Assembly (NCBI GenBank): GCA_963706595.1
Contig: OY970166.1
Span: 4,256,001-4,320,000, forward strand
Length of the DNA stretch: 64,000 bases
Direction: 5' to 3'
DNA from: an uncultured cyanobacterium
GTDB taxonomy: Bacteria > Cyanobacteriota > Cyanobacteriia > Cyanobacteriales > Nostocaceae
Shown: piece after piece, positions 11,814 to 40,376 of the stretch
How positions within the stretch are numbered: position 1 is the stretch's first letter
Layout of the letters: each line of letters opens with the position of its first letter
Notes under the pieces: model-generated
The model's database searches: none
Seen by the model: the letters and a program-made list of their open reading frames with translations, nothing else
What the model was told of the DNA's origin: nothing
Position numbers and translations under genes: made by a program

Positions 11814-13532
11814 TTAACTTCTGAGTTGCTTCATTGACCAAATAATGGCATGAGCGCCTAGCATTTGAGAGTATATTTTTCCCTGATTATCGTGTATAAT
11901 AAAATCTGCGATCGCACTACTCGGAGTTTTCGCTTTTATTTCACAAGAAACATAAAATAGTTCGTTGTGTGGGGTAGGCGCAAATTGTTCAAATTTCTCT
12001 ACTTTTCCCGGTAAGCAACCTTCTTGATGAAAGTGTTGTGTCCAAATCCATAAGGCGTGCATACTCAAGTCTGTGGTATAAGGATTAACCCATCTTACGG
12101 GGAATTGTCCTTGTTTTTGAGCGCTGATTTCTGTCCACAAACATTCTGTGGTGATTTTTTCAGGCGTAATATTTAAAACTCTTTGAACTTCTTGAAATGA
12201 AGGTCCATGAAATAATGTAGCCCCACCATTTTGATAGAACTCTTTTCCTGTAGCAGTAATAATGTGATCTTGATTTAGATTGATAGATTCATAAGTAGGA
12301 ACATGAGGAATTATCCTATGCAGGTTGAGTTGAGCGCTAAAGTGATAATGGGTTTTTCCGGCTGGGTTTTTACTCCAGATTTTAGCTTTAACTACAATTT
12401 TTTCTGAGTTAATTTTCTCAACTTCTTCTATGTCTAGAATGTGTTCTTTGGCTAAGTTGTGATTGAAGGTAATTCCCTTTAAAACTTTGAAATCTGTGTA
12501 ATTGAATAATCGATAGCCGGGATACATTTCCTCACAGCAATTAATTATCCATGTCATTGCACAGGTAGCAGGTAATACTGGCGAACCAGCTATTGCATGG
12601 TCATATAAAAAGGGATTGGCTTCCAGTTTCATCTGGCGACGGATGCGATGATTTCGCAGTTGGGAATCTAACTCTATAGCTGGGGGAAGCAATGGACTAC
12701 CAATGACAACTTGTGCAGTATCATGATGGGACGGGTGCAATTCGTTGACTAACATTTGTGTACCCGCATCCACAGGAATAATATCAAATCCCCTTTCTGC
12801 AAGCGCTTTTTTCAGTTCTGGTGACACCATCCCACTATCCCAAGCGCCCCAGTTAATGGCGACTACGTGACAGTGAGGATGATTTTGCTTGATTAAATGG
12901 GCGGATTTGTTGAGAATTTCGTTAGCGATCGCATAATCAGATTGTCCAAGATTGCCGTAAAATCCAGTTACGGAGGAGAACAATACTAAATGCTGGAGTT
13001 GCTCAAGGTTCACGCAAGTTAGGAGATTTTCTAATCCCTGCACTTTAGCAGTGTAAACCTTTTCAAAATCCTGGTCTGTTTTCTTTTCAATCAGCTTATC
13101 AGCTAAATTTCCCGCCCCGTGAATAATCCCAGTGATTGCACCTACAGCCGCTAATTTTTGCTGTAAATCTGCAACATTGGTGACATCTACACTAATATAT
13201 TCGGCTTGAGCGCCTGTTTGTTGGATACTTGCTAAGGTTTTCTTAATTTCTCGACTGGAAACGATTTTGTTATATATCTTCAGTACACTCATAGGAGTTG
13301 GTTTTTCTCCTTGAGTCAGAAGATTCTCCATAATGCGTTTCTTTAAGGCTGGTTCCTCGATACAATCTTGAGCAAATGCTGGTTCAATTTCTAAAAGTTC
13401 GGAACGACCAAGGAGAATGAATTTACAAGGCTGGTGCTGGGCTATTTTAATCGTACATTGGGCTGTAATCCCTTTTGCACCACCACTTACAACAAAAACT
13501 GATGAAGGACGAATCTGTGTCTGTGTAGTCAT
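11814..13532 (-). CDS. hglG: HglG, ketoreductase plus dehydratase-like domain
   Basis: SGGAKGIT, IIHGAG, GQSDYAIANE, WGAWDSGMV; DHAIAGSPVLP dehydratase-type motif. Confidence 0.9.
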   Translation of the reverse strand: MTTQTQIRPSSVFVVSGGAKGITAQCTIKIAQHQPCKFILLGRSELLEIEPAFAQDCIEEPALKKRIMENLLTQGEKPTPMSVLKIYNKIVSSREIKKTLASIQQTGAQAEYISVDVTNVADLQQKLAAVGAITGIIHGAGNLADKLIEKKTDQDFEKVYTAKVQGLENLLTCVNLEQLQHLVLFSSVTGFYGNLGQSDYAIANEILNKSAHLIKQNHPHCHVVAINWGAWDSGMVSPELKKALAERGFDIIPVDAGTQMLVNELHPSHHDTAQVVIGSPLLPPAIELDSQLRNHRIRRQMKLEANPFLYDHAIAGSPVLPATCAMTWIINCCEEMYPGYRLFNYTDFKVLKGITFNHNLAKEHILDIEEVEKINSEKIVVKAKIWSKNPAGKTHYHFSAQLNLHRIIPHVPTYESINLNQDHIITATGKEFYQNGGATLFHGPSFQEVQRVLNITPEKITTECLWTEISAQKQGQFPVRWVNPYTTDLSMHALWIWTQHFHQEGCLPGKVEKFEQFAPTPHNELFYVSCEIKAKTPSSAIADFIIHDNQGKIYSQMLGAHAIIWSMKQLRS

Positions 13533-13747
13533 ATTTTTTTATGATTAAAGAGGAACGAACCACAGAGACGCAGAGTACACAGAGAGATTAGACTTAGTGT
13601 TCTTCCTTCTTTGCGTCTTTGCGCCTTTGCGTGAAACAAAAAATATTTCTGTAATGAAGAGGGAAATATAGAGTCCTATTTATCGAACCGCCAAGTCGCC
13701 AAGAGCGCCAAGGAATGATTTAGGACTGCTATATCTCCCTCATTCCC

Positions 13748-14464
13748 TTACTTCTCGAAAGAAGCAACTAAGGTTACGCGTCCTTGGGAACCGTAAGCAA
13801 CTTCGCTGATATAAAGATTGGGGTCGTGCATTTCAGCGATGATATATTCTGCTGACTGTTGGGGATTTATAGCTGGACTTAAGTCAATGGCGCGAGTAAA
13901 GACTTTTGGCCATTCCCATTTCAGAGTTTTGGTTAATCCAAATAATCCTGCACCAATGGCTCCAAAATTAATGTTATGTTCTAAGCCAAAAGCACCATCT
14001 AAACGGTTGACTGTTATGAAACAACTGCGTTCATAACGCGCTACTTCGTTGAGGGTTTGCTTGAGATGTTTGGCTATGAAGAAGACGTGCTTGACAATGG
14101 CTTTTTCTTGTTCTAAGTAAGCTGGGGTTTGATTTCCGGGAAATACTGGATGAATATGGATGAAAGCGCCAATGTTGCCGAAGTGAGTCGCGATCGCAGA
14201 TAATTTATGTTGAAGCAATTCTTCGGTCATATCTGCGAGGACTACGCGATTCACTCCGACTGGTAAGGGCGATTGTTGAGGAACGATAGATGGGGGGAAA
14301 CTTAAAACTACCACTTTCCCGCCGCGATCGCTTAAAGTTTGAGCTAATTTTGAGGTGGTGAGGGAACCATCGTCAGTAATTACACTCACGTGTCCCTCTG
14401 GTAAAGCGAAGTCTAAACTATCCGGTGGTGGGAGGAATTGCAGTTTAGCTGGTCGCCGTGTCAC
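13748..14464 (-). CDS. hglF: HglF, KR structural-subdomain-like protein; possibly the recoded C-terminus of HglE
   Basis: GLFGLTKTLKWEWP and RAIDL motifs as in the PfaA region before KR; between hglE and hglG; frame is open upstream to the A9 run at 14511-14519. Confidence 0.8.
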   Translation of the reverse strand: MTRRPAKLQFLPPPDSLDFALPEGHVSVITDDGSLTTSKLAQTLSDRGGKVVVLSFPPSIVPQQSPLPVGVNRVVLADMTEELLQHKLSAIATHFGNIGAFIHIHPVFPGNQTPAYLEQEKAIVKHVFFIAKHLKQTLNEVARYERSCFITVNRLDGAFGLEHNINFGAIGAGLFGLTKTLKWEWPKVFTRAIDLSPAINPQQSAEYIIAEMHDPNLYISEVAYGSQGRVTLVASFEK

Positions 14465-14472
14465 ACCGTCTA

Positions 14473-17400
14473 TTACCTGGACTGGCTGGTAACTAAACTC
14501 CTGCTGAGGCTTTTTTTTTCACCCCCAGCAGCTAGCTTCTGGAGATAATCAACTATTTGACCGATGGTGCGAAGGTCTCCCAGTTCTTCTATATTCGGCT
14601 GGGGTAAATTGGGGTATTTATCTTGCATCGCTCCCAATATTTCTACCCGTTTGATGGAGTCAATTCCTAAATCAGCCTCCATATCCATATCCATTTCTAG
14701 CATCTCTACTGGGTAGCCAGTCTTATCACTGGTGATGCTTAACAAGGTTTCACCCAAGTCTGCGTAATTATCGGTAGCTGCTATTTCTGGTTCTGTTTCT
14801 AATTCTGCGGGGAGGGGGGTAGAGACAACCGGGCTGGTCGTCTCTACGGGAATGGGGATCTCGTTGTCCCCTATGGGGATAAGGGACAAGGGGGATTGAG
14901 TCGATTCTAGCACGACTTCTGGAGTAGTAACAGCAGCACTGCCAGAAACTTGGGATTGCAGGTATTCTACAACTTGACCAATGGTGCGTTTTTCTGATAA
15001 TTCTTCTAAGTTTGGTTTGGGTAGGTCGGGGTACATATCCTGTAACGCGCCCAAGATTTCAACTCGTTTGATGGAGTCAATTCCTAAATCAGCCTCCATA
15101 TCCATATCCATCTCTAGCATCTCAACTGGGTAGCCAGTTTTATCGCTGGTGATGGCTAACAAGTTGTTACCCAATTCGGCTAAGTCAATATTAGAAGCAG
15201 CTACAGGTGCGGGGGGAATTTCGACTACTGGCGCTGGTGCTACTGCTACAGGTGCGGGTGGAATTTCTACTACTGGCGCTGGTGCTACTGCTACAGGTGC
15301 GGGTGGAATTTCTACTACTGGCGCTGGTGCTACTGCTACAGGTGCGGGGGGAATTTCTACTACTGGCGCTGGTGCTGTTTTTAACGACTGTCTTTGTGGG
15401 CTGAGTCGTTACCTGAGTCGAGATAATTTGAGAATATTCTTGTTGGATAAGTTGGAAAAACTTCTTGGCGTATTCTAACTGTTCTACAAGATATTGCTCA
15501 TGGATGCGGAGGGTTTCACCTTGTTGACTGTGAAACTGCATCATTCCTCGTTCTACACTTTCCTTGACAACTAGCTGAAGTTGTGCTGCTTCATCGTTAG
15601 ATTTGCTGTTAGCAAACACAGCGTTCTGTTGCTGCATCAATTGGAAAAACGCTTTGGTATATTCCATCTGATGTTGCAGATAAGTCCCGTGGACTTGCAG
15701 ATTTTCGGTTTGATTTTGCTGGAACTGTGTCAGCAGATATTCTAAACTCTCTAACGCCCGTTGGTAATTTACAGGTTTTTCTGGTGTTGGTTGCATTTTT
15801 GTCTCCTGGGCTATTGCAGTAGGAAGAATCACAGGATTCATTTGAGCCTGGGGTGCAGAATTAGTAGATTTATGTGAAAATTCGGGCAGACTATCTGGAG
15901 GATGGGCAACACGTCCATTGGTGGTATGTTCTTTCACTGCTGGAGTTGCTACTACTTCGGAAAATTCAGGTGCGGTAGTGACAGGTAAACTCACTTGATG
16001 TCCGTTCTGCAAAGCTTCAGTAAAAGCGTTCTTGGTTTTTTCGGAGACATAGTTCATGCCGTTTAAACGCACATTTAACGCCTTCTTCTTCTCTACTGGA
16101 GGTAGTGCAGGTTCTACTTGATAAGGATCGAGATTTTTCAAAGATAAGCCCACTACACGCAATTGTACAGCCGCTTCTCTCAGAGAGCGATCGCTGTTCT
16201 TTTGAGTGCTGGGGTTCAATGAGATGGTAAGATGTGGGCGATCGCCTAAAATATCTTTAACCAAGTTGGTCAAAATCCGTCGGGGACCAAATTCCACAAA
16301 GCAATAACCACCCGCAGCATAGATATTTTCGATTTCCTGTTTAAACATCACCGAATTAGACAGGTGAGTTTCCAGAATTTTTTGAATTGCTTGAGATTCT
16401 TGGGGGTAGGGTTTCCCTGTAACGTTGGTGAAGACAGGAATTTGAGGCTGATTGAATTTAACAGATTTAGTGGCGATCGCAAAGGATTTTTGAGCAAAAG
16501 CAATTAACGGCGTGTGGAAAGCAGCAGACACAGGTAACACCACCGCCGTACAACCTTGTTCCTGTAAAGCTTGTCTCACCTTCGCGATTTCTGCCGTCGG
16601 ACCAGCCAAGACAAATTGCGTCGGAGAATTAAAGTTAGCAATAGTCACCTGGGGAAAATTCCGCAGTACCACCGCAACCTTAGTCATATCTTCCTTCACC
16701 GCCAACATACTCCCAGCATCGTGGTCTGGGTCTTCTGGCGCAGCCATCGCTTGACCTCTAGACTTCACGAGAAACAAATAATCTGCTTCACTCAAAACCC
16801 CAGCAGCCCATAAAGCTGTCAATTCCCCAAAGCTGTGTCCCGCCACAAAATCTGATTTAAATCCCGCTTGTTGCAATATAGAATAAAGACCAGCGCTAAA
16901 TACCCCAATAGCAGGTTGAGCGTATTCTGTGCGTTGCAATGCAGCAATTTGGGCATTTTTTTCTGCTTCATCAAACACCGGATGAGGAAACACAATTTCT
17001 GAAACTGGCTGCAAATTATCTTTAAGTAACAAACTATCCATACAGCCATGTAAACGGCGCATAGTCGGGAAGTTCATCACCAATTCTCGCCCCATTTCCA
17101 GGTATTGCGAACCTTGTCCAGAAAACAGAGAAACAACCTTTCCGCCCAAAGCCATTCCAGAAGAACGGTAATAAATACCTTGGGGATGTTCCCAAGAAGC
17201 TGCGTTAGCTTTATTTCTCAGCCAGTCAATACTCACTTGCATAAACTTGCAGGCTTCTTGCAGATTCTCAGCCACAAACCCAACTCTAGCTGCAATTTGG
17301 GGAATCTCCAGCGATTGACATTCTTGAATTAAAGCCGCAAAGTGTCTGTCACCATCGGCTGACTGCAACTTACCCAGAGTTTCTTCACATTTACTCAAAA

Positions 17401-19015
17401 GTTGAGCCGGATTATTCGCAAATAGCAACACCTCACGGGCTGTACTGTGTAAACGGTAGGGAACGTTGTCTCCAGTTTCGTATTCTTCTAAAACAACGTG
17501 ATAATTTGTTCCACCGAAACCGAAAGAACTCACCCCAGCCCGTCTTGGTGCTTCACCTTCCGCCCGAATCCAAGGTCTGGTTTGGGTATTCAAATAAAAT
17601 GATGAATTCTTGATATCCAGTTTAGGATTTGGTTCAGTAATATTGATGGTTGCGGGTAAAACTTTGTGATGCAAAGCCAAAGCAGTTTTAATCAAACTTG
17701 CAGCCCCAGCAGCAGCTTTGGTATGTCCAATTTGAGATTTTACACTCCCCAAAGCGATATGCTGTCTTTGGGAATCATGTTTGCCAAAGTAATCTTTTAA
17801 AGAACCGAACTCAATCGGGTCTCCAGCCATTGTCCCAGTCCCGTGGGCTTCCATTAACCCCACAGTCGCAGGAGAAAAGTCAGCATCATCATAAGCACGT
17901 TCCAAAGCTTTGACTTGGCCTTCCTTGCGGGGAGCATAAATACTCTTGTAGCGACCATCGCTAGAAGTGCCAATCCCTTTAATCACGGCATAAATTTTAT
18001 CATTGTCCCGTTCCGCATCTTCCAAGCGTTTGAGGACATACATACAAACACCTTCACCCAGCAACATCCCATCAGATTTAGCATCGAAAGGTTTGGCGTT
18101 TTCACTGGGAGAAACGGCTGGGGTTTTGCTGAAAGAAATGTAAGCCATAATTGTGTTGTCAGTGTCAACACCACCGGTCAGCATCATATCAGCCCGATGT
18201 TCCACCAGTTCGCTAATAGCCATTTTCAAAGCACCAAAGGAACTAGCACAAGCCGCATCAACTACACAATTTGTGCCGCCAAAATTCAAGCGGTTGGCAA
18301 TTCTTCCAGCTACCACATTCGCCAACATCCCAGGGAAAGCATTTTCATCCCATTTGATATAGGCGCTTTTAATTTTTTCGATAATTTTTTGGGTATCTTC
18401 ATCAGAAATACCACTGCTTTTAAGTGCCTTTTCCCAAACAGGATACTCTAACCGAGCCGAAAGTGGCATTCCCAATTGCTTGGCCATCGCCACCCCTAAA
18501 ATGACCCCTATCTTTTCGCGACTAAATTCACGGGAGTCACCATAACCAGCATCTTCCATTGCTTCTTTAGCAATCACCAAACTTAATAGCTGGGAAATAT
18601 CTGTAACTTCCAAGATGCTGGGAGGAATGCCAAACTCCATGGGGTTAAAATCAATCTCTGGAATAAACCCACCTCTTTTACAGTAGGTTTTATCTTCAGG
18701 GGTTCTGGGGTTGGGGTCGTAATAATCTTCGACGCTCCAATGTGTGGAGGGGACATCAGTAATACAATCAATTTTATTAACGATATTTTGCCAGTATTCC
18801 CGTAAGTTTCTCGCTTGAGGTAAGAGAGAAGCCATCCCGACAATAGCTATGGGATTTTGTGCTAATTTTCTATTAATTTTGTTAACTGACATTACTGACA
18901 TAGGTGTTTCCTTGCTCAACTTCTTTTCCTCTATTGACCTAATCAAAGTTTTCTCAACACTTTTGATAAGGCTCTCTAACTCTGCCAAAGCCGTATCAAT
19001 TGAATAAGCAGACAT
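14473..19015 (-). CDS. hglE: HglE heterocyst glycolipid synthase (KS-AT-2xACP), broken by one +1 frameshift near 15378-15382
   Basis: KS DAACAS/HGTGT/GHTK; AT GHSFG and SAAFH; two ACPs LGIDSIKRVEI in ORF 14473-15174. Removing one A from GTTAAAAACAGCA joins the ORFs through an APAPVVEIPP linker. Confidence 0.9.
15200..15376. repeat. 45-bp coding tandem repeat (about 4 copies), HglE AT-ACP linker
   Basis: Units start at 15200, 15245, 15290 and 15335; minus strand encodes (APAPVVEIPPAPVAV)n. Confidence 0.92.
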
Positions 19016-19366
19016 AAGGCATATACTGTTCTTAAGTACTGTGGATTGTGATAGCTGGCGTGGCGATAGCTACAGTAATTCCTAATTCGTAATTCCTAAT
19101 TTGTAATTAAGAAGTCAGATTTCATCTGATTCGGGAGAACTGGTATAATGTCAAGCACCCAATAAATGAAGTCCACATTTTAATTTTATTAATCTTGTGG
19201 GGGAGGGCAAAGATGTCCGCCCTTGTGTACCTCATTTAGATGAAATATACTGTAACTGGTTGTTACTAAAGCAACCGCACACGATACATACTGTCTTTCC
19301 GCCCTCATTAATGGATGCTTTGAGCATTTCCAGGCACTTTCGGAATACAGCATTCGTGAAATAATC

Positions 19367-19645
19367 TTATACAGGACTCGACTCTTGATATTGAGGTAAT
19401 AGGTCAATCACGTTGTTGAAACTGGAAAAATAGTCTTGGAGTACGTTAGCTGCTTGACCAGTGAATTCCATCCATTCGTAATGGTAGAGATTTTCAGCGA
19501 TTGTATCCCACTGGATTAAGGGAAACTGAGGAGTAGCTACTAGGACAGAAACGCTTTTTTCTCCCAAACTAGTTTGAGTATCTAGCCTAACCGCAGCCAC
19601 GTAGCTGGTGTTAATGACAACGTTCTGTATCTTGATAAATGCCAT
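19367..19645 (-). CDS. Small hypothetical protein upstream of hglE
   Basis: 92-aa ATG ORF, protein-like composition, co-oriented with hglE. Confidence 0.65.
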   Translation of the reverse strand: MAFIKIQNVVINTSYVAAVRLDTQTSLGEKSVSVLVATPQFPLIQWDTIAENLYHYEWMEFTGQAANVLQDYFSSFNNVIDLLPQYQESSPV

Positions 19646-20340
19646 AGCCAGTTTCAGCGTCCAGGATAATTTAGTTTAAGCAATTTGACCCAGAAAAGTT
19701 GACAACTTCGTTACAGAAAAAACATTCCCTTTAATTCTGAAATCATGCACTTTTCTGAAGAAATACTCACACACTTATAGAATGATGCCAATGCGGTTAG
19801 GTTTAGTTTTGCTTTTTCAAATTTAAACAAAATAACTAATTTTCCTTGCCGCTTTGAAAGGGTTGAATTAATAAAAACAATAGCATGATTCACACAAACT
19901 AAATCATTTGTTTAAAGTAATTTTATAAATAAACTAGATTCTCCCTGGTAGCAATTTTCAAAAAGGCACGATCTACAAGTATAGTAAATAACTGAGTTGC
20001 TAGGCTGGTATTTTAGCTTAACTGCTTTCCTAGTCTTGATTTTTATGCCAGCACGCATATTTTGGTAATGCAGCTAAGATTTAATCAATACATCAAAAAC
20101 GTCCGGTTTTATCTAAGTTTATTTTTCAGCAGAACATCATAATTAAAGGGAATAATTCGATAATGTTTAAAGATAAAAGTACCTATAGAAAGCAATAGTA
20201 ATTTATAAAGCAAACATTAATTTAGAAGATAGTGCATAATAAACAAAACTCATTTGTGATGAATTGCCTAAACTTTGACCGCATTTAGCAATATCTGACA
20301 AAGCAGTTACAGATTAAGAAATAACTTTGTGAATCAAGGA

Positions 20341-20372
20341 ATTTTAGATTTTAGATTTTAGATTTTAGATTT
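20341..20372. repeat. STRR-type heptamer repeat (TTTTAGA)n
   Basis: About 4 tandem copies; same unit at 34726-34756. Confidence 0.8.
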
Positions 20373-20399
20373 TGGTGTGTCTGTAGTAAAAAATAGATA

Positions 20400-21731
20400 C
20401 TAAGACACCAAGCCGATTTTCTGCGGTAATTTACCAGTCCATTTCTGCCACCGCATGATTCCCCGATTCACCAATTGGGGATTTTCATCGCCAATAAAAC
20501 AGATTCGCCCCATTCTTTCGCAAGCAATGAGAATTTCACCGTTACCCATAAATGGAGCAATGACAAAATTATTCTGATGGGTATACAAATTAATTAAGTA
20601 GTTGACAATACCTTCTACGCCGTCAATATTAATTGGTGTCTGTGGCTGAGGTATTGATTGGTGAGAAAAAATGCCCACATAAAGATTACCTAGAACTAAT
20701 TCATATTGAAAAGGCATTTGGCTATGACGATAAAAATTATAAATATGACCCTCAGAACGCAGCACCGCCACCACCCGCGCTTCATCTATTAAGTAATTAT
20801 GCTCCCAAGTCTGAGAAAGGGTGGCGATCGCTAAAGCAGCATCTGACGGTAACAGGTTTCTAAATTTTGAACTAGCAGTATGATCACAATACACTAAATG
20901 CCGTCCCAGCATCCATTCTTCACCAATTTTAACACTCGGTTCATGAGTAGCGATCGCTGGTTCCGGCTGACGTTGCCCTTTTTTGTGCGCCAACTTAGCT
21001 TCCCGTTGCGCCATAGCACTTTTGTAAGCCAAAATCTGTAAATCTTTTTGCTTCGCCTTAGCTTCCAGCATCAATTGAGCTTGCCTTGCCGATTCTGCGG
21101 CATCTCCTCTCGCCTGGGCTAACTCCCAAGCCTTTTGAGACTCTTGGGCTAAAATCCGCTCTTTACTCCCAGCCCTAGCTATTTTCAGCAGTGCAGTCGG
21201 ACTATCAGCAACAGGCGAACCCTTAATGATTTCTTTCACCTCTGAGTGAATACTTTTAGCAATTTGCTTACCGTGCTGAAAGGTGCGTTCAGAGTAGCCA
21301 ACTTCTCTCGCCAACTCCACAGTCCGTTTTAACGGTGGTGAAATGATTTCACCACCTTTGGCTGTATATTGATTATCGCCAACCTTTGCCCTTAAACCCA
21401 TCCGCGCTAAAATCTCGTCTCGCTCCAACCACAATTCCGAACGCTCCAGTGGTTCCAACTCATTGCGAATCAAATTCTCATCAATTTCCGCCAACCGGGA
21501 TTGATCAGAATTTTCATAGTTCACAATATGACACTCAACAGCCTCTAGCCCCAAAAGTTTGCAAGCCGTCAAACGATGTAGCCCAGCAATCAAATTCAGC
21601 TTTTGATCCACCGTAATCGGATTTAACAAACCATTAGCCCGAATTGACTCCTTCAACTCATTCACCTTTTCGCCCTTAACCGGACGGCGATTCAGACCAA
21701 TCCGAATTTTATCTATGGACACTATAGGCAT
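20400..21731 (-). CDS. ParB/Srx N-terminal domain protein with degenerate DNA-methylase-like C-terminus
   Basis: SIRANGLLNPITV, LIAGLHRLTA and EIDENLIRNEL ParB motifs; C-terminal APFMGNGEILIACERMGR resembles the SAM-binding FxGxG motif. Confidence 0.8.
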   Translation of the reverse strand: MPIVSIDKIRIGLNRRPVKGEKVNELKESIRANGLLNPITVDQKLNLIAGLHRLTACKLLGLEAVECHIVNYENSDQSRLAEIDENLIRNELEPLERSELWLERDEILARMGLRAKVGDNQYTAKGGEIISPPLKRTVELAREVGYSERTFQHGKQIAKSIHSEVKEIIKGSPVADSPTALLKIARAGSKERILAQESQKAWELAQARGDAAESARQAQLMLEAKAKQKDLQILAYKSAMAQREAKLAHKKGQRQPEPAIATHEPSVKIGEEWMLGRHLVYCDHTASSKFRNLLPSDAALAIATLSQTWEHNYLIDEARVVAVLRSEGHIYNFYRHSQMPFQYELVLGNLYVGIFSHQSIPQPQTPINIDGVEGIVNYLINLYTHQNNFVIAPFMGNGEILIACERMGRICFIGDENPQLVNRGIMRWQKWTGKLPQKIGLVS

Positions 21732-22285
21732 AATTACTAAACTTGAGTGCAATCAGTCAAAGGTATATCTAAATATATTGCATCAATATACTCATTGGCG
21801 AGTCAATGAAGAAGCAGGGGAGAAGAGGAGAGGCGGTTGGGATTGACAAGATAGGCAATTTTTGCAATACTTATAAACGAGCTAAACCAAGTTTTGCCAG
21901 TTATTTTTCTCTTCGCTGCGAGCATCTGAAGATTTAGATTTTGATCCTAGCCAGATTGTATTTTACGCTACTTGATTCGGTGTCAAATTAGGATAAAACT
22001 AAGGAAGATTTGCAGTCACACCACCATTAAATCAGTGAACAGTGAACAAGGCTTATGGTGGGGGATATAAACCCAATTATGTCTCTTGACTGTTCACTGA
22101 TAACTGATAACTGATAACTGTACAGGCGTACAACAATTTATATAGAACTAATTAGACCTCTCAATTGGCAAAAAAGTAACACCAGAGAGAAAACCCTCTG
22201 GGTTAAATTGCGGATGAGTCTATTGCATTCAAATGATCTAGCCATTTTAGGCTGTTCCCTGGCATAGCACAATTGGAATAAAAAT

Positions 22286-27718: not shown

Positions 27719-28978
27719 ATGAAAGAGTTGACGATATTCATTAATCAGTCTTTGCTGAGTTGGCTGGCTATTCAAATGTGTTTAGCGCTGGTGTTTCTGT
27801 TATACCTGCGATCGCACCAAGAAAACATCTTAGCCGATGAGCAGTTACCCAAAACGGCTGTAATTCTTTGTCTGCGGGGAGCCGATCCGTATTTACCTAA
27901 CTGCGTCGAGGCGCTGTTAAATCAGAATTATCCAGAGTACGATTTAAAGCTGATTGTTGATAGTCAAGAAGATCCGGCTTGGCAAATTGTCAATGATATT
28001 ATCAACGAACAAGGAGCCATCAACGTCCAAGTCAGCCCTCTGAGGACTATACGACATGACTGTAGTCTCAAATGTAGTTCGCTGTTGCAAGCTGTTTCCG
28101 AGTTGGATGATTCCTATCAGGCGATCGCCTTAGTAGATGGTGATACTATTGTTCATACTAATTGGTTACGTGAATTAGTTAGTCCTCTCGCTGATCCCAA
28201 AGTCGGCGCAACCACGGGGAACCGTTGGTTTGTACCTACAGGTAACTATTGGGGGTCTTTGGTCCGCTACATCGGTAATGTCTCTACTGTGGTGCAAATG
28301 TACCTGTTCCAAGTTCCTTGGGGTGGAACTTTGGCGATTAAAACAGATGTGCTGCGCCAAACAGGTCTGTTAGATAAGTGGAGACAGGCTTTCGGCGAAG
28401 ATTTTATGATCCACAAAATCCTCAAAAAACATGGGATGCGGGTTAAGCTTGTACCTTCCTTGATTATGCTCAATCGGGAAGAGTGTGATTTACTGGGATT
28501 AATAGACGCACTCAAGCGTCTCATCTTGTATTCTCGACTTTATCATCCCAGTTGGTTAGCGATAGTTGGTGATGCAGTTTCGAGTATTCTGTTTCCTTTT
28601 GTGGCCATAATTCTGTTTCTATTATCGTTGTTAGATGCACAGTGGGATTTAGCCGTTTTATTGTTTTCCACTTATTGCATTTACACTGTGGGACTACTCT
28701 TAGTAACGCTGATTTTAGAGTTAGGGGTAAGCCAAGTGATTTACTCTCATGGTCAGCCCACTTCAAAATTATCAATGGCGACAATAGCCAAAATATTCAT
28801 TGCTATTCCCCTCACGCAATGGGTATATGGATTAGCTTTGCTCTCGTCATTATGGATGTCAACAGTTAAATGGCGCGGTATTGTTTACCGTGTGCAAAAT
28901 GCCTGGAATATCCGATTAGTTGAATACCATCCTTATGATTTGTTGGATCAACCTATTGACAGCAAAATTTCTCTTTGA
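27719..28978 (+). CDS. Glycosyltransferase family 2 (ceramide glucosyltransferase-like), membrane-bound
   Basis: VILCLRGADP, CSLKCS, LVDGD, PWGG, GED motifs; C-terminal TM helices. Confidence 0.85.
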   Translation: MKELTIFINQSLLSWLAIQMCLALVFLLYLRSHQENILADEQLPKTAVILCLRGADPYLPNCVEALLNQNYPEYDLKLIVDSQEDPAWQIVNDIINEQGAINVQVSPLRTIRHDCSLKCSSLLQAVSELDDSYQAIALVDGDTIVHTNWLRELVSPLADPKVGATTGNRWFVPTGNYWGSLVRYIGNVSTVVQMYLFQVPWGGTLAIKTDVLRQTGLLDKWRQAFGEDFMIHKILKKHGMRVKLVPSLIMLNREECDLLGLIDALKRLILYSRLYHPSWLAIVGDAVSSILFPFVAIILFLLSLLDAQWDLAVLLFSTYCIYTVGLLLVTLILELGVSQVIYSHGQPTSKLSMATIAKIFIAIPLTQWVYGLALLSSLWMSTVKWRGIVYRVQNAWNIRLVEYHPYDLLDQPIDSKISL

Positions 28979-29081
28979 GGTAAATCAATGAGACGCGATG
29001 GAGACGGGATGAAGACGCGATGAATCACGTCTGTACAAGAAAGTTCATCTTTCAGAGTCAACCATACAGCAGTAATTAAAG

Positions 29082-30344
29082 ATGAACGACTTGGTAATAT
29101 TCATATCTAGGTGTCTAACCGTTAGCTTGGCTGTTCAAGTATGTTTTATGTTAGTGTTTTTGTGGCATCTATCCTCATCCCCAAAAAATCTCTTAGCAGA
29201 TGAAGATTTACCCAAAACGGCAGTGATTCTTTGCCTACGTGGCGCTGATCCGTTTTTGAGTGATTGTTTGCGGGCGCTGTTGAATCAGAATTACACGCAG
29301 TATGATTTAAAAATAGTCGTTGATCGGATGGAAGATCCAGCATGGACAATTGCTACGGATACTGTCCAGGAACATGGCGCGACTAATGTGCAAATCAGCC
29401 CGTTGCGAATTATCCGGAGAAATTGCAGTCTCAAATGTAGTGCTTTAATCCAAGCGGTGACAGAATTGGATGATTCTTATCAAGCGATCGCCTTAGTAGA
29501 TGCTGATACAATTGTTCATGAGCATTGGCTGCGTGAATTAGTCACTCCTTTAGCTCATCCCCATATTGGCGCGACAACGGGGAACCGTTGGTATGTCCCT
29601 ACAGGTAGCCATTGGGGTTCTATAGTTCGGTATATGTGGAACGTATCTGCGGTGGTGCAGATGTATTTATATGGTATTCCTTGGGGCGGGAGTATGGCGG
29701 TAAAAACAGCAGTCATTCATCAAACAAAATTGCTGGATAAGTGGGGAAAAGCCTTCTGTGAAGATACAATGATGCGTCATATTTTAGGTAAACATAAAAT
29801 ACAGATTAAATTTGTACCTTCTTTGATGATGCTGAATCAAGAAGAGTGTGATTTAACTGATTTAAAAACTTGGATGCAGCGCCAACTTTTGTTTTGCAGA
29901 CTTTATCACCCCCACTGGTTTGCAGTAGTAGGTAACGCGATTTTAACAATCCTGTGTCCTACTCTTTTGAGTGTATTGTTTGTAGCAGCTTTGCTAACTG
30001 GACAATGGTATGCTGCATCATTATCTCTGAGCTACTATAGCAGCTATGTAGTGGCATTACTATTGATTGTACTTTTCTTAGAACAAGCAGTACAGCTAGT
30101 TATTCGCGCTGATCATCAACCAAGTGCAAAATTATCCGTTGCGGCAATTTTCAAGATGTTAATGGGAATTCCCTTAACACAATGGGTTTATGGGTTCGTA
30201 TTCCTCTCTTCTCTCTGGATGTCAAAAGTTAAATGGCGTGGGATCACCTATAAATTCAAAAGTCCCTGGAAGATTCGGTTAGTTGAATATCGTCCTTATC
30301 GGTCGGGAGACAAACCTGTTTTGCCAAATATTTCTTTGAATTGA
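29082..30344 (+). CDS. Glycosyltransferase family 2, tandem paralog of the preceding gene
   Basis: Same motifs (VILCLRGADP, LVDAD, PWGG, CED). Confidence 0.85.
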   Translation: MNDLVIFISRCLTVSLAVQVCFMLVFLWHLSSSPKNLLADEDLPKTAVILCLRGADPFLSDCLRALLNQNYTQYDLKIVVDRMEDPAWTIATDTVQEHGATNVQISPLRIIRRNCSLKCSALIQAVTELDDSYQAIALVDADTIVHEHWLRELVTPLAHPHIGATTGNRWYVPTGSHWGSIVRYMWNVSAVVQMYLYGIPWGGSMAVKTAVIHQTKLLDKWGKAFCEDTMMRHILGKHKIQIKFVPSLMMLNQEECDLTDLKTWMQRQLLFCRLYHPHWFAVVGNAILTILCPTLLSVLFVAALLTGQWYAASLSLSYYSSYVVALLLIVLFLEQAVQLVIRADHQPSAKLSVAAIFKMLMGIPLTQWVYGFVFLSSLWMSKVKWRGITYKFKSPWKIRLVEYRPYRSGDKPVLPNISLN

Positions 30345-30415
30345 TCATGCAATGCGCTCGAAAAGCATAAAGAGACCTTTTTTTCGGTTCTAAAATACAC
30401 AAAAGCACTAAAATT

Positions 30416-31678
30416 ATGAACAAGCAACCGCTTCGTATTGCTCTGTTTACAGGATTGTATGCTCCTTTTTTAACAGGGGTTTCAATTGCAGTCCATCAAA
30501 GGGTGCGCTGGTTACTCGAACAAGGGCATGAAGTTTTTCTAATCCATCCAGAAATTAACGATCAGTATCCTAAAAATGTTAGCAATCGTCCTATGGCAGG
30601 ACTGGAAGAATTGCAGTGTTTTCCTAATTTTTCTGCTTATGCTTTCCCCACAAAGCCACTAATTTTTTACAAGTCTTTACCCCAACCATTACACTATCGC
30701 CATTGGAGTGATACTAAGTTATTAGAAAAGTTTAAACCCAATATTGTAGTAGTAGAAGAAGCTCCGCAAATGCGAGGTTTCTATTCAATGTTCTTGCAAG
30801 GTTATGGTCGCCCCATTGGGGTTGAATATGCGAAGAAAACGGGGACTCCAATTATTTCTGTTTTCCACACTGATATTGTTGCCTACATTCAATACTACTT
30901 GGGTAATCAGATTTTCAATTTGATGCGTCCGATTATTCCCTTTTTAGTCAAGCAGTCCACTGAAGTCTATGATCGCAATTTATTTCCTTCTCAAGGACAA
31001 CTCCTAAAGTACAAAGAACTGAATTGCCAACGGGGTGAATATGTTCCTTATCAAGGAATTGATTGTGAAAAATTTCACCCCCGCAATATTATCCACAACC
31101 CGATTCCCGACGACAACAGACCAACTATCTTGTTTGTGGGACGCATTACGGCGGAAAAAAATGTCACCCAACTTATCGATATGTTTCCGCTAATTGCTGC
31201 CAAAATTCCTGATGTTCATTTGGTGATTATTGGTAGTGGTCCTTTAGATGAAGAACTGCGTCGGCGCTCCCAAAAGTTTGAAGGTATTACTATGTGGGGT
31301 GAGTCCCACGGTACAGAACTTTTGGGTTGGTTTGCTCGTGCAGATGTATTTGTCAACCCTTCTGCGACTGAAAATTTCTGCACTACAAATACCGAAGCGC
31401 TGGCTTCCGGTACTCCTTTGGTGGCTGTGGTTGCACCTTCAAGCTTTGAGCAAGTTTTTCCTGGTCGCAATGGCTTTTTAGCTGAAGCCAATAATCCTCA
31501 AGATTTTGCCGATCAGGTAGCGGCAATTTTGGCAAATTCTCAACTTAAAGCAGAAATGGCTGAACAGGCTCGTCCTTCTATACTCAAATATGATTGGTCG
31601 GCGTGTTCACAAAAGTTTGAAGATAAGCTTTATGAGATAGTTCAAGATGTTAAGAAACTAGAGCCAACAACTGTTTAA
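30416..31678 (+). CDS. hglT: Glycosyltransferase family 4, HglT
   Basis: FVGRITAEKN and ENFCTTNTEALASGTP GT-B motifs; last gene of the hgl island. Confidence 0.82.
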   Translation: MNKQPLRIALFTGLYAPFLTGVSIAVHQRVRWLLEQGHEVFLIHPEINDQYPKNVSNRPMAGLEELQCFPNFSAYAFPTKPLIFYKSLPQPLHYRHWSDTKLLEKFKPNIVVVEEAPQMRGFYSMFLQGYGRPIGVEYAKKTGTPIISVFHTDIVAYIQYYLGNQIFNLMRPIIPFLVKQSTEVYDRNLFPSQGQLLKYKELNCQRGEYVPYQGIDCEKFHPRNIIHNPIPDDNRPTILFVGRITAEKNVTQLIDMFPLIAAKIPDVHLVIIGSGPLDEELRRRSQKFEGITMWGESHGTELLGWFARADVFVNPSATENFCTTNTEALASGTPLVAVVAPSSFEQVFPGRNGFLAEANNPQDFADQVAAILANSQLKAEMAEQARPSILKYDWSACSQKFEDKLYEIVQDVKKLEPTTV

Positions 31679-39113: not shown

Positions 39114-40376
39114 CTACAACTCAGGCATTTCTATGGGTGTGACATTACCCGCATAATGCTTGAGAATGATCGCCGGACTATTCCCCACAAGTTTAGCCAC
39201 TTCTGAGACGGTAAAACCTGCACCAAGCATCATAGTAATGAATGTATGCCGAGTATTGTACAGGCATCTATAACGCTCTACCGCCCCTGAGTCTACCAAG
39301 GCACGCATAACCCCAGTATAAAACTTAGTTCCCTGTTTTCCCCCGTGCCATACTTGCTGTGAGAACTTTGTATTGTTAACCATCCCACCGTTGGGACTGG
39401 TAAATACAGAATCATCAGGCAACTGATCGGGTTTCCTTAACTCTTTCAGAAGTTCTTTAAGCCTGTTATTACAAGTAAACCTACGACTTTTACCTGTTTT
39501 GGTACATTTCCTAACCTTTGTTGCCCCATCGTAACTATCACTAAAAGTTATAACTGAGTAATCCGGTGCGATATGCTTCCACTGTAGAGCTATTGCCTCA
39601 CCAGTCCTACAACCAGTCCAGAATAGAAACTTGATAAATGGTGCATAATGTGGCTTATTGGCTTCAAATGCCCCGATGATCGCATCCATCTCAGACTTAC
39701 TAAATGGATCAATGGCATCATCGTCTGATTTAGGTAACTTGATATCTGCGGACATCTGCATAAATGGATTGTCCTTAACCAGTCCAGACTTTACAGCCCA
39801 ACCAACACAGGCGCTTAGATAAGTTAAAACTCTCTTAGCTGCATTCGTGGTCAAGTTAGCTAACAGATAATCCCTGATCGCCACTGAATCATCTAGGCTG
39901 TGAGTAGGCAGTGACTTGATATGGTTTCTGTACTTCCTAGCATAATCCTTTCTGTAAGTTGTCTCTGCCAGTTGTGGCTTCATATATTCTGAATATCTAT
40001 CCCATAGTGTTAGCAGGTTGAATCTAGGCTCTACAGGCTTTCTAGGCTCTACTACGACTAGATGCCTATTCTTATAACTTGCTAACTTGTCCTTATATTT
40101 GGCTAGGGTCGGATTTAGCTGTTCTGTGAGTATATCCTCCTCAATCCAGTTAGCCACGCCTGATACACGCTTCTTGTTAATCTCAGTAGTATCTAAACCT
40201 GAGTAAATATAAACCTGCTTACCACCTGCTACTGACCTGGGAAGCCTTAACCTCAGCTTGCCTTCTTTATCATCAATGTTCACTGACATCTTGGCTTTTT
40301 TCTGTGCGACCATATCTCCCTGAGTCCTCTTAACCTTTACCTTACCAAGGGTAATCAATCCAGGACTCAAAGTCAA
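39114..40376 (-). CDS. Tyrosine recombinase/integrase with putative arm-binding N-terminal domain
   Basis: TGCRTGEAIALQW (catalytic R), KTGK, YNTRHTF, VGNS..KHY (catalytic Y); next to att. Start may be ATG 40313. Confidence 0.93.
   Translation of the reverse strand: MTLSPGLITLGKVKVKRTQGDMVAQKKAKMSVNIDDKEGKLRLRLPRSVAGGKQVYIYSGLDTTEINKKRVSGVANWIEEDILTEQLNPTLAKYKDKLASYKNRHLVVVEPRKPVEPRFNLLTLWDRYSEYMKPQLAETTYRKDYARKYRNHIKSLPTHSLDDSVAIRDYLLANLTTNAAKRVLTYLSACVGWAVKSGLVKDNPFMQMSADIKLPKSDDDAIDPFSKSEMDAIIGAFEANKPHYAPFIKFLFWTGCRTGEAIALQWKHIAPDYSVITFSDSYDGATKVRKCTKTGKSRRFTCNNRLKELLKELRKPDQLPDDSVFTSPNGGMVNNTKFSQQVWHGGKQGTKFYTGVMRALVDSGAVERYRCLYNTRHTFITMMLGAGFTVSEVAKLVGNSPAIILKHYAGNVTPIEMPEL

Follow-up and report, generated by a model that had tools for sequence, protein, structure and literature searches.

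Programmed recoding is known from few chromosomal, non-mobile bacterial genes. In Thermus thermophilus dnaX, slippage on nine A/T adds several A's and gives tau and gamma, with about 50% full length (PMC5009743), and in other bacteria dnaX also occurs as two open reading frames (ORFs) joined by ten A's (PMC3711429). The -1 shifts of Escherichia coli dnaX, copA and chlD take place on a zero-frame heptamer with an early -1 stop, which yields a short N-terminal subunit from one gene (PMC5009743, PMC9227772). In Roseiflexus IS630 slippage, a nascent hairpin lies directly 5' of the motif (PMC5009743). Here we consider a run of nine A's (A9) at the junction of the heterocyst glycolipid synthase genes hglE and hglF, found in a window of 64,000 nucleotides (positions 4,256,001 to 4,320,000 of contig OY970166.1) from an uncultured cyanobacterium of the Nostocaceae. 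Comparison of sequences suggests, with a probability that we put at about two in three, that the A9/A10 run behind the last ACP serves as a site of programmed recoding, which in Nostocaceae most likely acts via RNA-polymerase slippage.

Like T. thermophilus dnaX, hglE can encode its long form in one ORF with an internal run of 9-10 A's and nearby stops in both other frames, and the one-ORF and two-ORF forms of dnaX resemble the in-frame and out-of-frame states of hglE described below. Unlike dnaX, hglE codes for an iterative lipid synthase of the Pfa type, the short product would break off between the ACPs and a pseudo-KR, and a 5' hairpin may take part. The heptamer is the same as in E. coli dnaX, copA and chlD; however, Nostocaceae hglE has neither a conserved 3' stem nor a spaced Shine-Dalgarno site, and its run is longer than the heptamer needs. 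A hairpin placed as in Roseiflexus IS630 is suggested for hglE, but the IS630 motif is T5C5 and loses a base, whereas the hglE motif is an A homopolymer that would gain bases, and its hairpin is only suggestive. The class of mechanism is already known from dnaX, copA and chlD, and the hglE/pfaA case is apparently new and probably real. No report of recoding in hglE or pfaA was found in the literature searched, with most subscription papers and one PMC3711429 supplement (file 1, possibly with the cluster table) outside the search; two other supplementary files of PMC3711429 held no match. The word 'polyketide' is absent from the first 300,000 characters of the recoding review PMC5009743.

On the minus strand, the window reads GGG GGT GAA AAA AAA AGC, and the run starts 10 nucleotides past the second ACP of hglE (coordinates in Table 1). 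Re-reading bore out the run and both reading frames as first described: the ACP frame ends with EKKSLSRSLVTSQSR and a stop, while the -1 frame is open and continues through KKKPQQEFSYQPVQVIDG into VTRRPAKL of hglF, with a GTG at 14462-14464. The third frame stops right after ASAGV. Among 76 runs of at least nine A's in the genome (both strands), this is the only one that links two long open frames in different phases.

The original prediction was that the split between hglE and hglF may be a conserved recoding site with a -1 shift. To see what is conserved, we analysed 291 loci that reduce to 236 distinct junctions: 175 of the Nostocaceae hglE_A type, 29 Nostocaceae paralogues and 32 from other cyanobacteria. 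Classes were sorted by divergence; L175 was counted as a paralogue though it lies in the main tree clade, and L028 was dropped for want of an hglF match. The run itself is conserved, with A9 or longer in 175 of 175 hglE_A-type junctions and none without it. The split is rare: 168 of the 175 are in frame, with hglE and hglF fused (152 A10G, 5 A10C, 5 A10T and 6 A11T), and seven are out of frame, six needing -1 and one +1. In the same-genus genomes, too, hglE continues in frame into hglF, and all close relatives have A10 at the junction, unlike the window. Six of the 29 paralogue junctions are out of frame. An A10 had been expected to mean a simple in-frame fusion and nothing more; this was too strict, as the in-frame A10 is itself a conserved signal. 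Since most Nostocaceae junctions of the hglE_A type are fused rather than split, recoding there would yield the short form. At one A10 junction in frame (L226, G128:C11) the open frame spans 411 codons only, hglE being interrupted further upstream.

Codon usage indicates that the run is kept at the nucleotide level, beyond what the protein needs. Across 73 aligned full-length in-frame coding sequences, 144 columns are conserved as Lys, Glu or Gln; only eight of them lack a G-ending codon, and three of these eight are the consecutive junction codons. The Lys columns give the same picture, with 2 of 49 lacking a G-ending codon, both among the junction codons. Residues vary at the edges (E/Q at codon 1, which is GAA or CAA; K/N at codon 4, which is AAG, AAT, AAC or AAA) while the ten A's stay, and the linker behind the run diverges freely among orthologues. 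Runs of this length are otherwise rare: five genomes hold 4, 7, 9, 9 and 10 sites with at least ten A's (one poly-A contig set aside), and the hglE site is among them in each. At the in-frame loci, the -1 frame stops within 11 codons in 71 of 72 (controls 57%) and the +1 frame within 13 codons in 72 of 72 (controls 61%); early stops in both other frames occur at 33% of control positions. As kin are not independent, these conservation counts are not formal tests.

The opposite state, with hglE and hglF out of frame, is real in Anabaena PCC 7120 and in many non-heterocyst cyanobacteria, and short and long HglE isoforms, as in the original prediction, are the likely outcome. PCC 7120 HglE has 1,541 amino acids, ends with GGEKKSLSLSGTGSQSV and shows the same A9 reading as the window. 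This 1,541-residue form is found in two versions, on 14 and 6 contigs from several sources, and a fused form of 1,777 residues is found on 16 contigs in the same 90% cluster. The earlier statement that the two genes are annotated separately in PCC 7120 is right: hglE_A and hglF are separate there and one gene in a Calothrix strain, with fusions and fissions mentioned generally (PMC11804610). A supplementary table of that paper lists hglF mutants as lacking the glycolipid layer. The paper describes the hglF product as one that 'probably interacts with HglEA', and neither 'frameshift' nor 'slippage' occurs in its text and one supplement.

Outside Nostocaceae, 20 of the 32 cyanobacterial junctions are out of frame, 17 needing -1 and three +1. 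Those in frame comprise five with A9-A10, six with a shorter run that holds A_AAA_AAR and one with neither. A metagenome scan with non-cyanobacterial PfaA-like proteins returned 80 loci, 53 of them scorable, with some duplicates and many of cyanobacterial origin. Here 31 were in frame and 22 out of frame, and the latter carried A9-A11 (14), A6G or A7 with the heptamer in phase (7) or A4 (1). In a KS tree of 176 sequences, out-of-frame junctions are spread over several clades, one group clustering with Aureibacter and Persicobacter PfaA, and the two states alternate between sisters. At four out-of-frame loci (L276, L277, L278, L247), the frame past the run holds a fused HglF-HglG of 740-840 codons; here a recoded product would span the whole length of a PfaA-like chain.

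These patterns bear on whether there is any programme at all. EKKK might be kept for protein reasons, the out-of-frame cases being assembly errors or true splits in which HglF has its own start. Five of the seven out-of-frame hglE_A-type loci do differ from their relatives in run length only, this assembly carries frame-breaking errors, and a TTG stands 14 codons into HglF in 10 of 33 out-of-frame loci and is the annotated start of the 216-residue PCC 7120 HglF. Nevertheless, we judge this explanation quite unlikely. The run is kept through frozen synonymous positions even where the encoded residues change, and errors would not yield one phase across clades and many-contig assemblies. Start codons are no commoner in out-of-frame (19/33) than in in-frame loci (124/203); 14 of the 33 out-of-frame junctions have no ATG, GTG or TTG up to 20 codons into HglF, and only three of the 33 have a Shine-Dalgarno-like site. 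An independent HglF start is not favoured, though the TTG at codon 14 keeps that option alive for some loci.

The same concern applies to the window's own A9. The genome is a single contig, 94% complete, that carries frame-breaking errors. Single extra bases relative to two or three relatives, whether genic or not, lie at about 27264, 34143, 34652, 45840, 46494 and 47507, and an additional frame break lies inside hglE near 15380; this is consistent with the earlier remark that the other frameshifts in the window need a base removed. Because of this break, the assembled hglE ends at 15191, upstream of both ACPs, and translation from its start codon would terminate without getting to the run. 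Elsewhere, a frame audit of 137 ORFs (171 kb) found eight small events, five of +1, two of +2 and one of -1, mostly outside homopolymers; three larger events from one divergent alignment were set aside. Systematic truncation of A10 to A9 by the assembler was rejected, since A10 is kept in this genome at three distinct sites: of 20 A10 sites of relatives that were checked in it, seven had no spanning match, five rows (the three distinct sites) had A10, one had A9 and the remainder had diverged. As errors are mostly non-homopolymer insertions and deletions are rare, the chances are nearly even that the A9 is a natural allele, as in PCC 7120, or an assembly slip. Among sequencing runs, none contained more than 0.45 of the window's words. 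Four of 24 runs were examined and gave contigs from relatives; three of these contigs (X1, X4, X18) are one base longer at the run than the window, and because all four (with X12) belong to relatives, they cannot settle the run length of the window's strain. The finding on the conserved A-run does not depend on whether the window's A9 is real.

Alleles that differ by one A raise the further possibility of a DNA-level contingency switch, in which replication slippage would toggle long HglE between cells or strains. The A9 and A10 alleles that coexist in the PCC 7120 cluster fit such phase variation, as do one-A differences between sister loci (L249 versus L250; L172 versus L239/L240). We regard it as very improbable, given that PCC 7120, which carries the A9 allele, is reported to produce heterocyst glycolipids and to require hglF, that the out-of-frame state is fixed throughout entire non-heterocyst clades whose downstream frames are intact, and that genome records hold almost only A9-A11.

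Some RNA-derived and Logan records point to longer runs. RNA contig X12 agrees with genome G002, which has A10, at 35 of 35 listed sites, and only a run of A11 accounts for the net -1 gap and 85 mismatches of X12 relative to the window. Among 13 Logan-only proteins that cover the junction, six imply lengthened runs, as deduced from their peptides: A11 in P0178, P0207 and P0237, A14 in P0208, A16 in P0182 and A20 in P0180. An extra Lys or an A11 tail occurs in none of about 68 NCBI-sourced cluster proteins (hand count). Gains of several A's are also the outcome of slippage at the A9 of T. thermophilus dnaX.

That recoding of one kind or the other takes place at the hglE junction is, on this comparative evidence, probable. 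As to mechanism, ribosomal -1 frameshifting and transcriptional slippage had both been put forward, and the evidence favours slippage. At five junctions the shift required is +1/-2, not -1, and the run is found in every one of the three codon phases; this is easier to reconcile with a slipping polymerase than with -1 shifting. The same two isoforms could arise mainly by -1 ribosomal frameshifting at A_AAA_AAA or A_AAA_AAG, as in E. coli dnaX. An A_AAA_AAR heptamer does stand in the zero frame, the fourth junction codon is AAG in 62 of 73 coding sequences against a background of 26%, and the shift needed is -1 in 22 of 22 out-of-frame metagenomic loci. Four in-frame non-Nostocaceae junctions, like the seven metagenomic loci above, carry nothing longer than A6G or A7, again with an in-phase heptamer. 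As the main route, ribosomal shifting is nonetheless unlikely: it has no conserved 3' structure and no Shine-Dalgarno enrichment, and leaves unexplained the lengthened runs in contigs, the junctions needing +1/-2 and the keeping of ten A's rather than seven or eight.

RNA structure was examined on both sides of the run. The original prediction placed the run in the loop of a possible 9-bp stem, and this did not hold up as a conserved feature: 8 or 9 of its 9 pairs are possible in only 5 of 72 orthologues, and for 38 of the 72 the best fold contains no base pair spanning the run. The stem is present in the minimum-energy fold of 14464-14545, but that fold is no better than chance would allow, as 16 of 200 shuffled sequences equalled it (z -1.63). 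Downstream, structure is not enriched in 72 in-frame loci (mean z -0.26; 8 of 72 below -2) nor in 26 out-of-frame loci, with the exception of the metagenomic locus L317, out of frame and with heptamer in phase, which has a strong 3' hairpin (z -5.1). A 5' Shine-Dalgarno stimulator is likewise not enriched (7 of 72 in-frame loci against 39 of 288 controls). A hairpin directly 5' of the run is the suggestive candidate. In the window it folds at -13 kcal/mol (z -2.02), and z scores from synonymous recoding average -1.96, falling below -1.5 in 46 of 70 against 45 of 350 controls. In 55 of 63 distinct upstream sequences (indel variants excluded), 83% of cells are paired, and three of nine pairs show two-sided changes. 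An intrinsic terminator was also considered for either strand and rejected; no terminator-like site exists at the junction, where the hairpin precedes the A's and no conserved hairpin follows.

Several observations weigh against polymerase slippage at a programmed site. The loci are related, so the counts overstate independence, and the heptamer is present in the ACP frame wherever the run is, which leaves ribosomal -1 shifting as a lesser possibility. RNA contig X18 (depth about 380) shows A10. The Logan-only proteins with A11-A20 come from records of unstated library type, P0207 and X12 may share a study of origin, and reverse transcription or the polymerase chain reaction can also lengthen A runs. 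For the 5' hairpin, RNAalifold gave no consensus structure, and out-of-frame loci show the hairpin only weakly (mean z -0.44). PfaA proteins of Shewanella, Colwellia, Moritella and Psychromonas have no run or Lys stretch, and 15 of the 29 Nostocaceae paralogue junctions lack the feature. Thus, the run is not needed by every Pfa-type synthase.

If RNA polymerase slips at the run, it would add one to several A's, perhaps aided by the 5' hairpin, and produce a mixed pool of messenger RNAs (mRNAs). From an A10 gene, unslipped mRNA (and mRNA with +3 or +6) would give long HglE-F, a KS-AT-ACP-ACP-pseudoKR protein of about 1,790 amino acids, and the other mRNA lengths a short KS-AT-ACP-ACP protein of about 1,500-1,540 amino acids that ends within 13 codons. 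A9 genes, as found in PCC 7120, in many non-heterocyst cyanobacteria, in Bacteroidota-like PfaA and perhaps in the window's strain, would give the short protein by default and the long one after a single added A. With A10 long by default, A9 short by default and each slipping, both states would make both proteins. Where a lineage has only A_AAA_AAG, any recoding would have to take place on the ribosome, and -1 frameshifting would lead to the same outcome.

HglF matches FabG-like reductases weakly and aligns with PfaA just ahead of the KR domain, while HglG carries KR and DH; we infer that HglF is the structural half of a ketoreductase. HglG would then be recruited by the long isoform, whereas the short form, which lacks the domain needed to complete the ketoreductase together with HglG, would contribute extra KS/AT and tandem ACPs. 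In this way the short form may set the ratio of synthase subunits, in line with the role in stoichiometry first proposed; ACP number is reported to add to yield in polyunsaturated fatty acid (PUFA) synthases (PMC4882568), and the ratio of short to full protein may, if the recoding is true, tune glycolipid yield or chain processing.

We lean somewhat towards a broader proposal, in which Pfa-type lipid megasynthases of cyanobacteria, Bacteroidota-like bacteria and others share an ancient recoding site where the ACPs meet the ketoreductase. Over evolutionary time the site would have switched its frame state (in frame or out of frame) as well as its mechanism (polymerase slippage or ribosomal shifting). 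It would determine how much of a short, carrier-rich subunit is made relative to the full enzyme, and would make PCC 7120 'hglF' a slippage-dependent C-terminal domain of HglE rather than a gene of its own. If true, recoding would set subunit stoichiometry in a polyketide/PUFA-type megasynthase, a central heterocyst gene of PCC 7120 would be re-annotated, and the split pfaA and hglE listed in many databases as pseudogenes or two genes would be explained. Codon optimisation would erase the site, which matters for heterologous expression.

Table 1. Features of the hglE-hglF junction and adjoining genes in the window
Feature	Position	Strand	Comment
Candidate A-run slippage site	14511..14519	-	A9 here; contains A_AAA_AAA in ACP frame; A10 in frame in 10/10 same-genus genomes
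TAG after ...ASAGV	14493..14495	-	would terminate the short form from A11 (or A8) transcripts; tail present in Logan-only protein P0208
TAA closing the A9 (or A12) frame	14473..14475	-	tail SLSRSLVTSQSR; equivalent tail SLSLSGTGSQSV ends PCC 7120 HglE
Last (second) ACP domain of HglE	14530..14763	-	A-run begins 10 nucleotides beyond it
ORF with both ACPs (hglE continuation)	14473..15174	-	in the ACP frame, closed by the TAA above
hglE KS-AT part as assembled	15191..19015	-	frame broken near 15380 by an extra base in a Pro/Ala/Val repeat linker; probably assembly error
hglF region	13748..14464	-	FabG-like fold without recognisable catalytic motifs; PfaA model positions 1758-1980; putative C-terminal domain of long HglE
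hglG, separate gene	11814..13532	-	KR and DH domains; PfaA model positions 1991-2572
9-bp stem first proposed, CUGCUGGGG/CCUCAGCAG	14501..14531 (arms 14523-14531, 14501-14509)	-	can form in the window; not conserved in orthologues
Possible nascent-RNA hairpin (YAYCUCCAG...CUGGRGGUG) on the 5' side of the run, up to which it extends	14519..14548	-	candidate stimulator, suggestive only

The neighbourhood is a heterocyst glycolipid island, with KS-AT, two ACPs, hglF, KR-DH, KS-KS-AT, a PfaD-like gene, reductases and a phosphopantetheinyl transferase. Its gene order and domains fit the known synthase island (hglE_A, hglF, hglG, hglC, hglA, hglB, hetN, hetI), and the KS-AT-tandem ACP-KR-DH order of the PfaA/HglE synthase (TIGR02813) is spread across hglE, hglF and hglG. 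The closest named relatives of the window are Nodularia and Anabaena records. The hglE linker at 15190-15380 (minus strand) holds four near-identical 36-nucleotide Pro/Ala/Val repeats whose number differs among relatives, and the extra base at its start disrupts the frame ahead of the ACPs. Between hglF and hglG, 13550-13730 is a highly repeated intergenic element, with a depth 10-30 times that of its flanks in all four sequencing runs examined. A ParB-N/DNA-methylase-like ORF (20400-21752, region 19253-21807) lies between hglE and divergent exporter genes, and the three relatives compared have it too.

An hglE2-type paralogue of the same genome (G000:C1:1938040-1945000) is one frame of 2,320 codons, with a tandem-repeat linker after its last ACP and no A-run. 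Elsewhere in the window, three tandem ORFs of 419-420 amino acids occupy 27719-31678 (plus strand), and another ORF of 420 amino acids lies at 39114-40376. A second A10 run with conserved flanks, a possible slippage or regulatory site, lies near G000:C1 2281286 and is kept in four genomes of the genus (L389, L392, L401), and a further shared T10/A10 is found at about 2368211 (L393).

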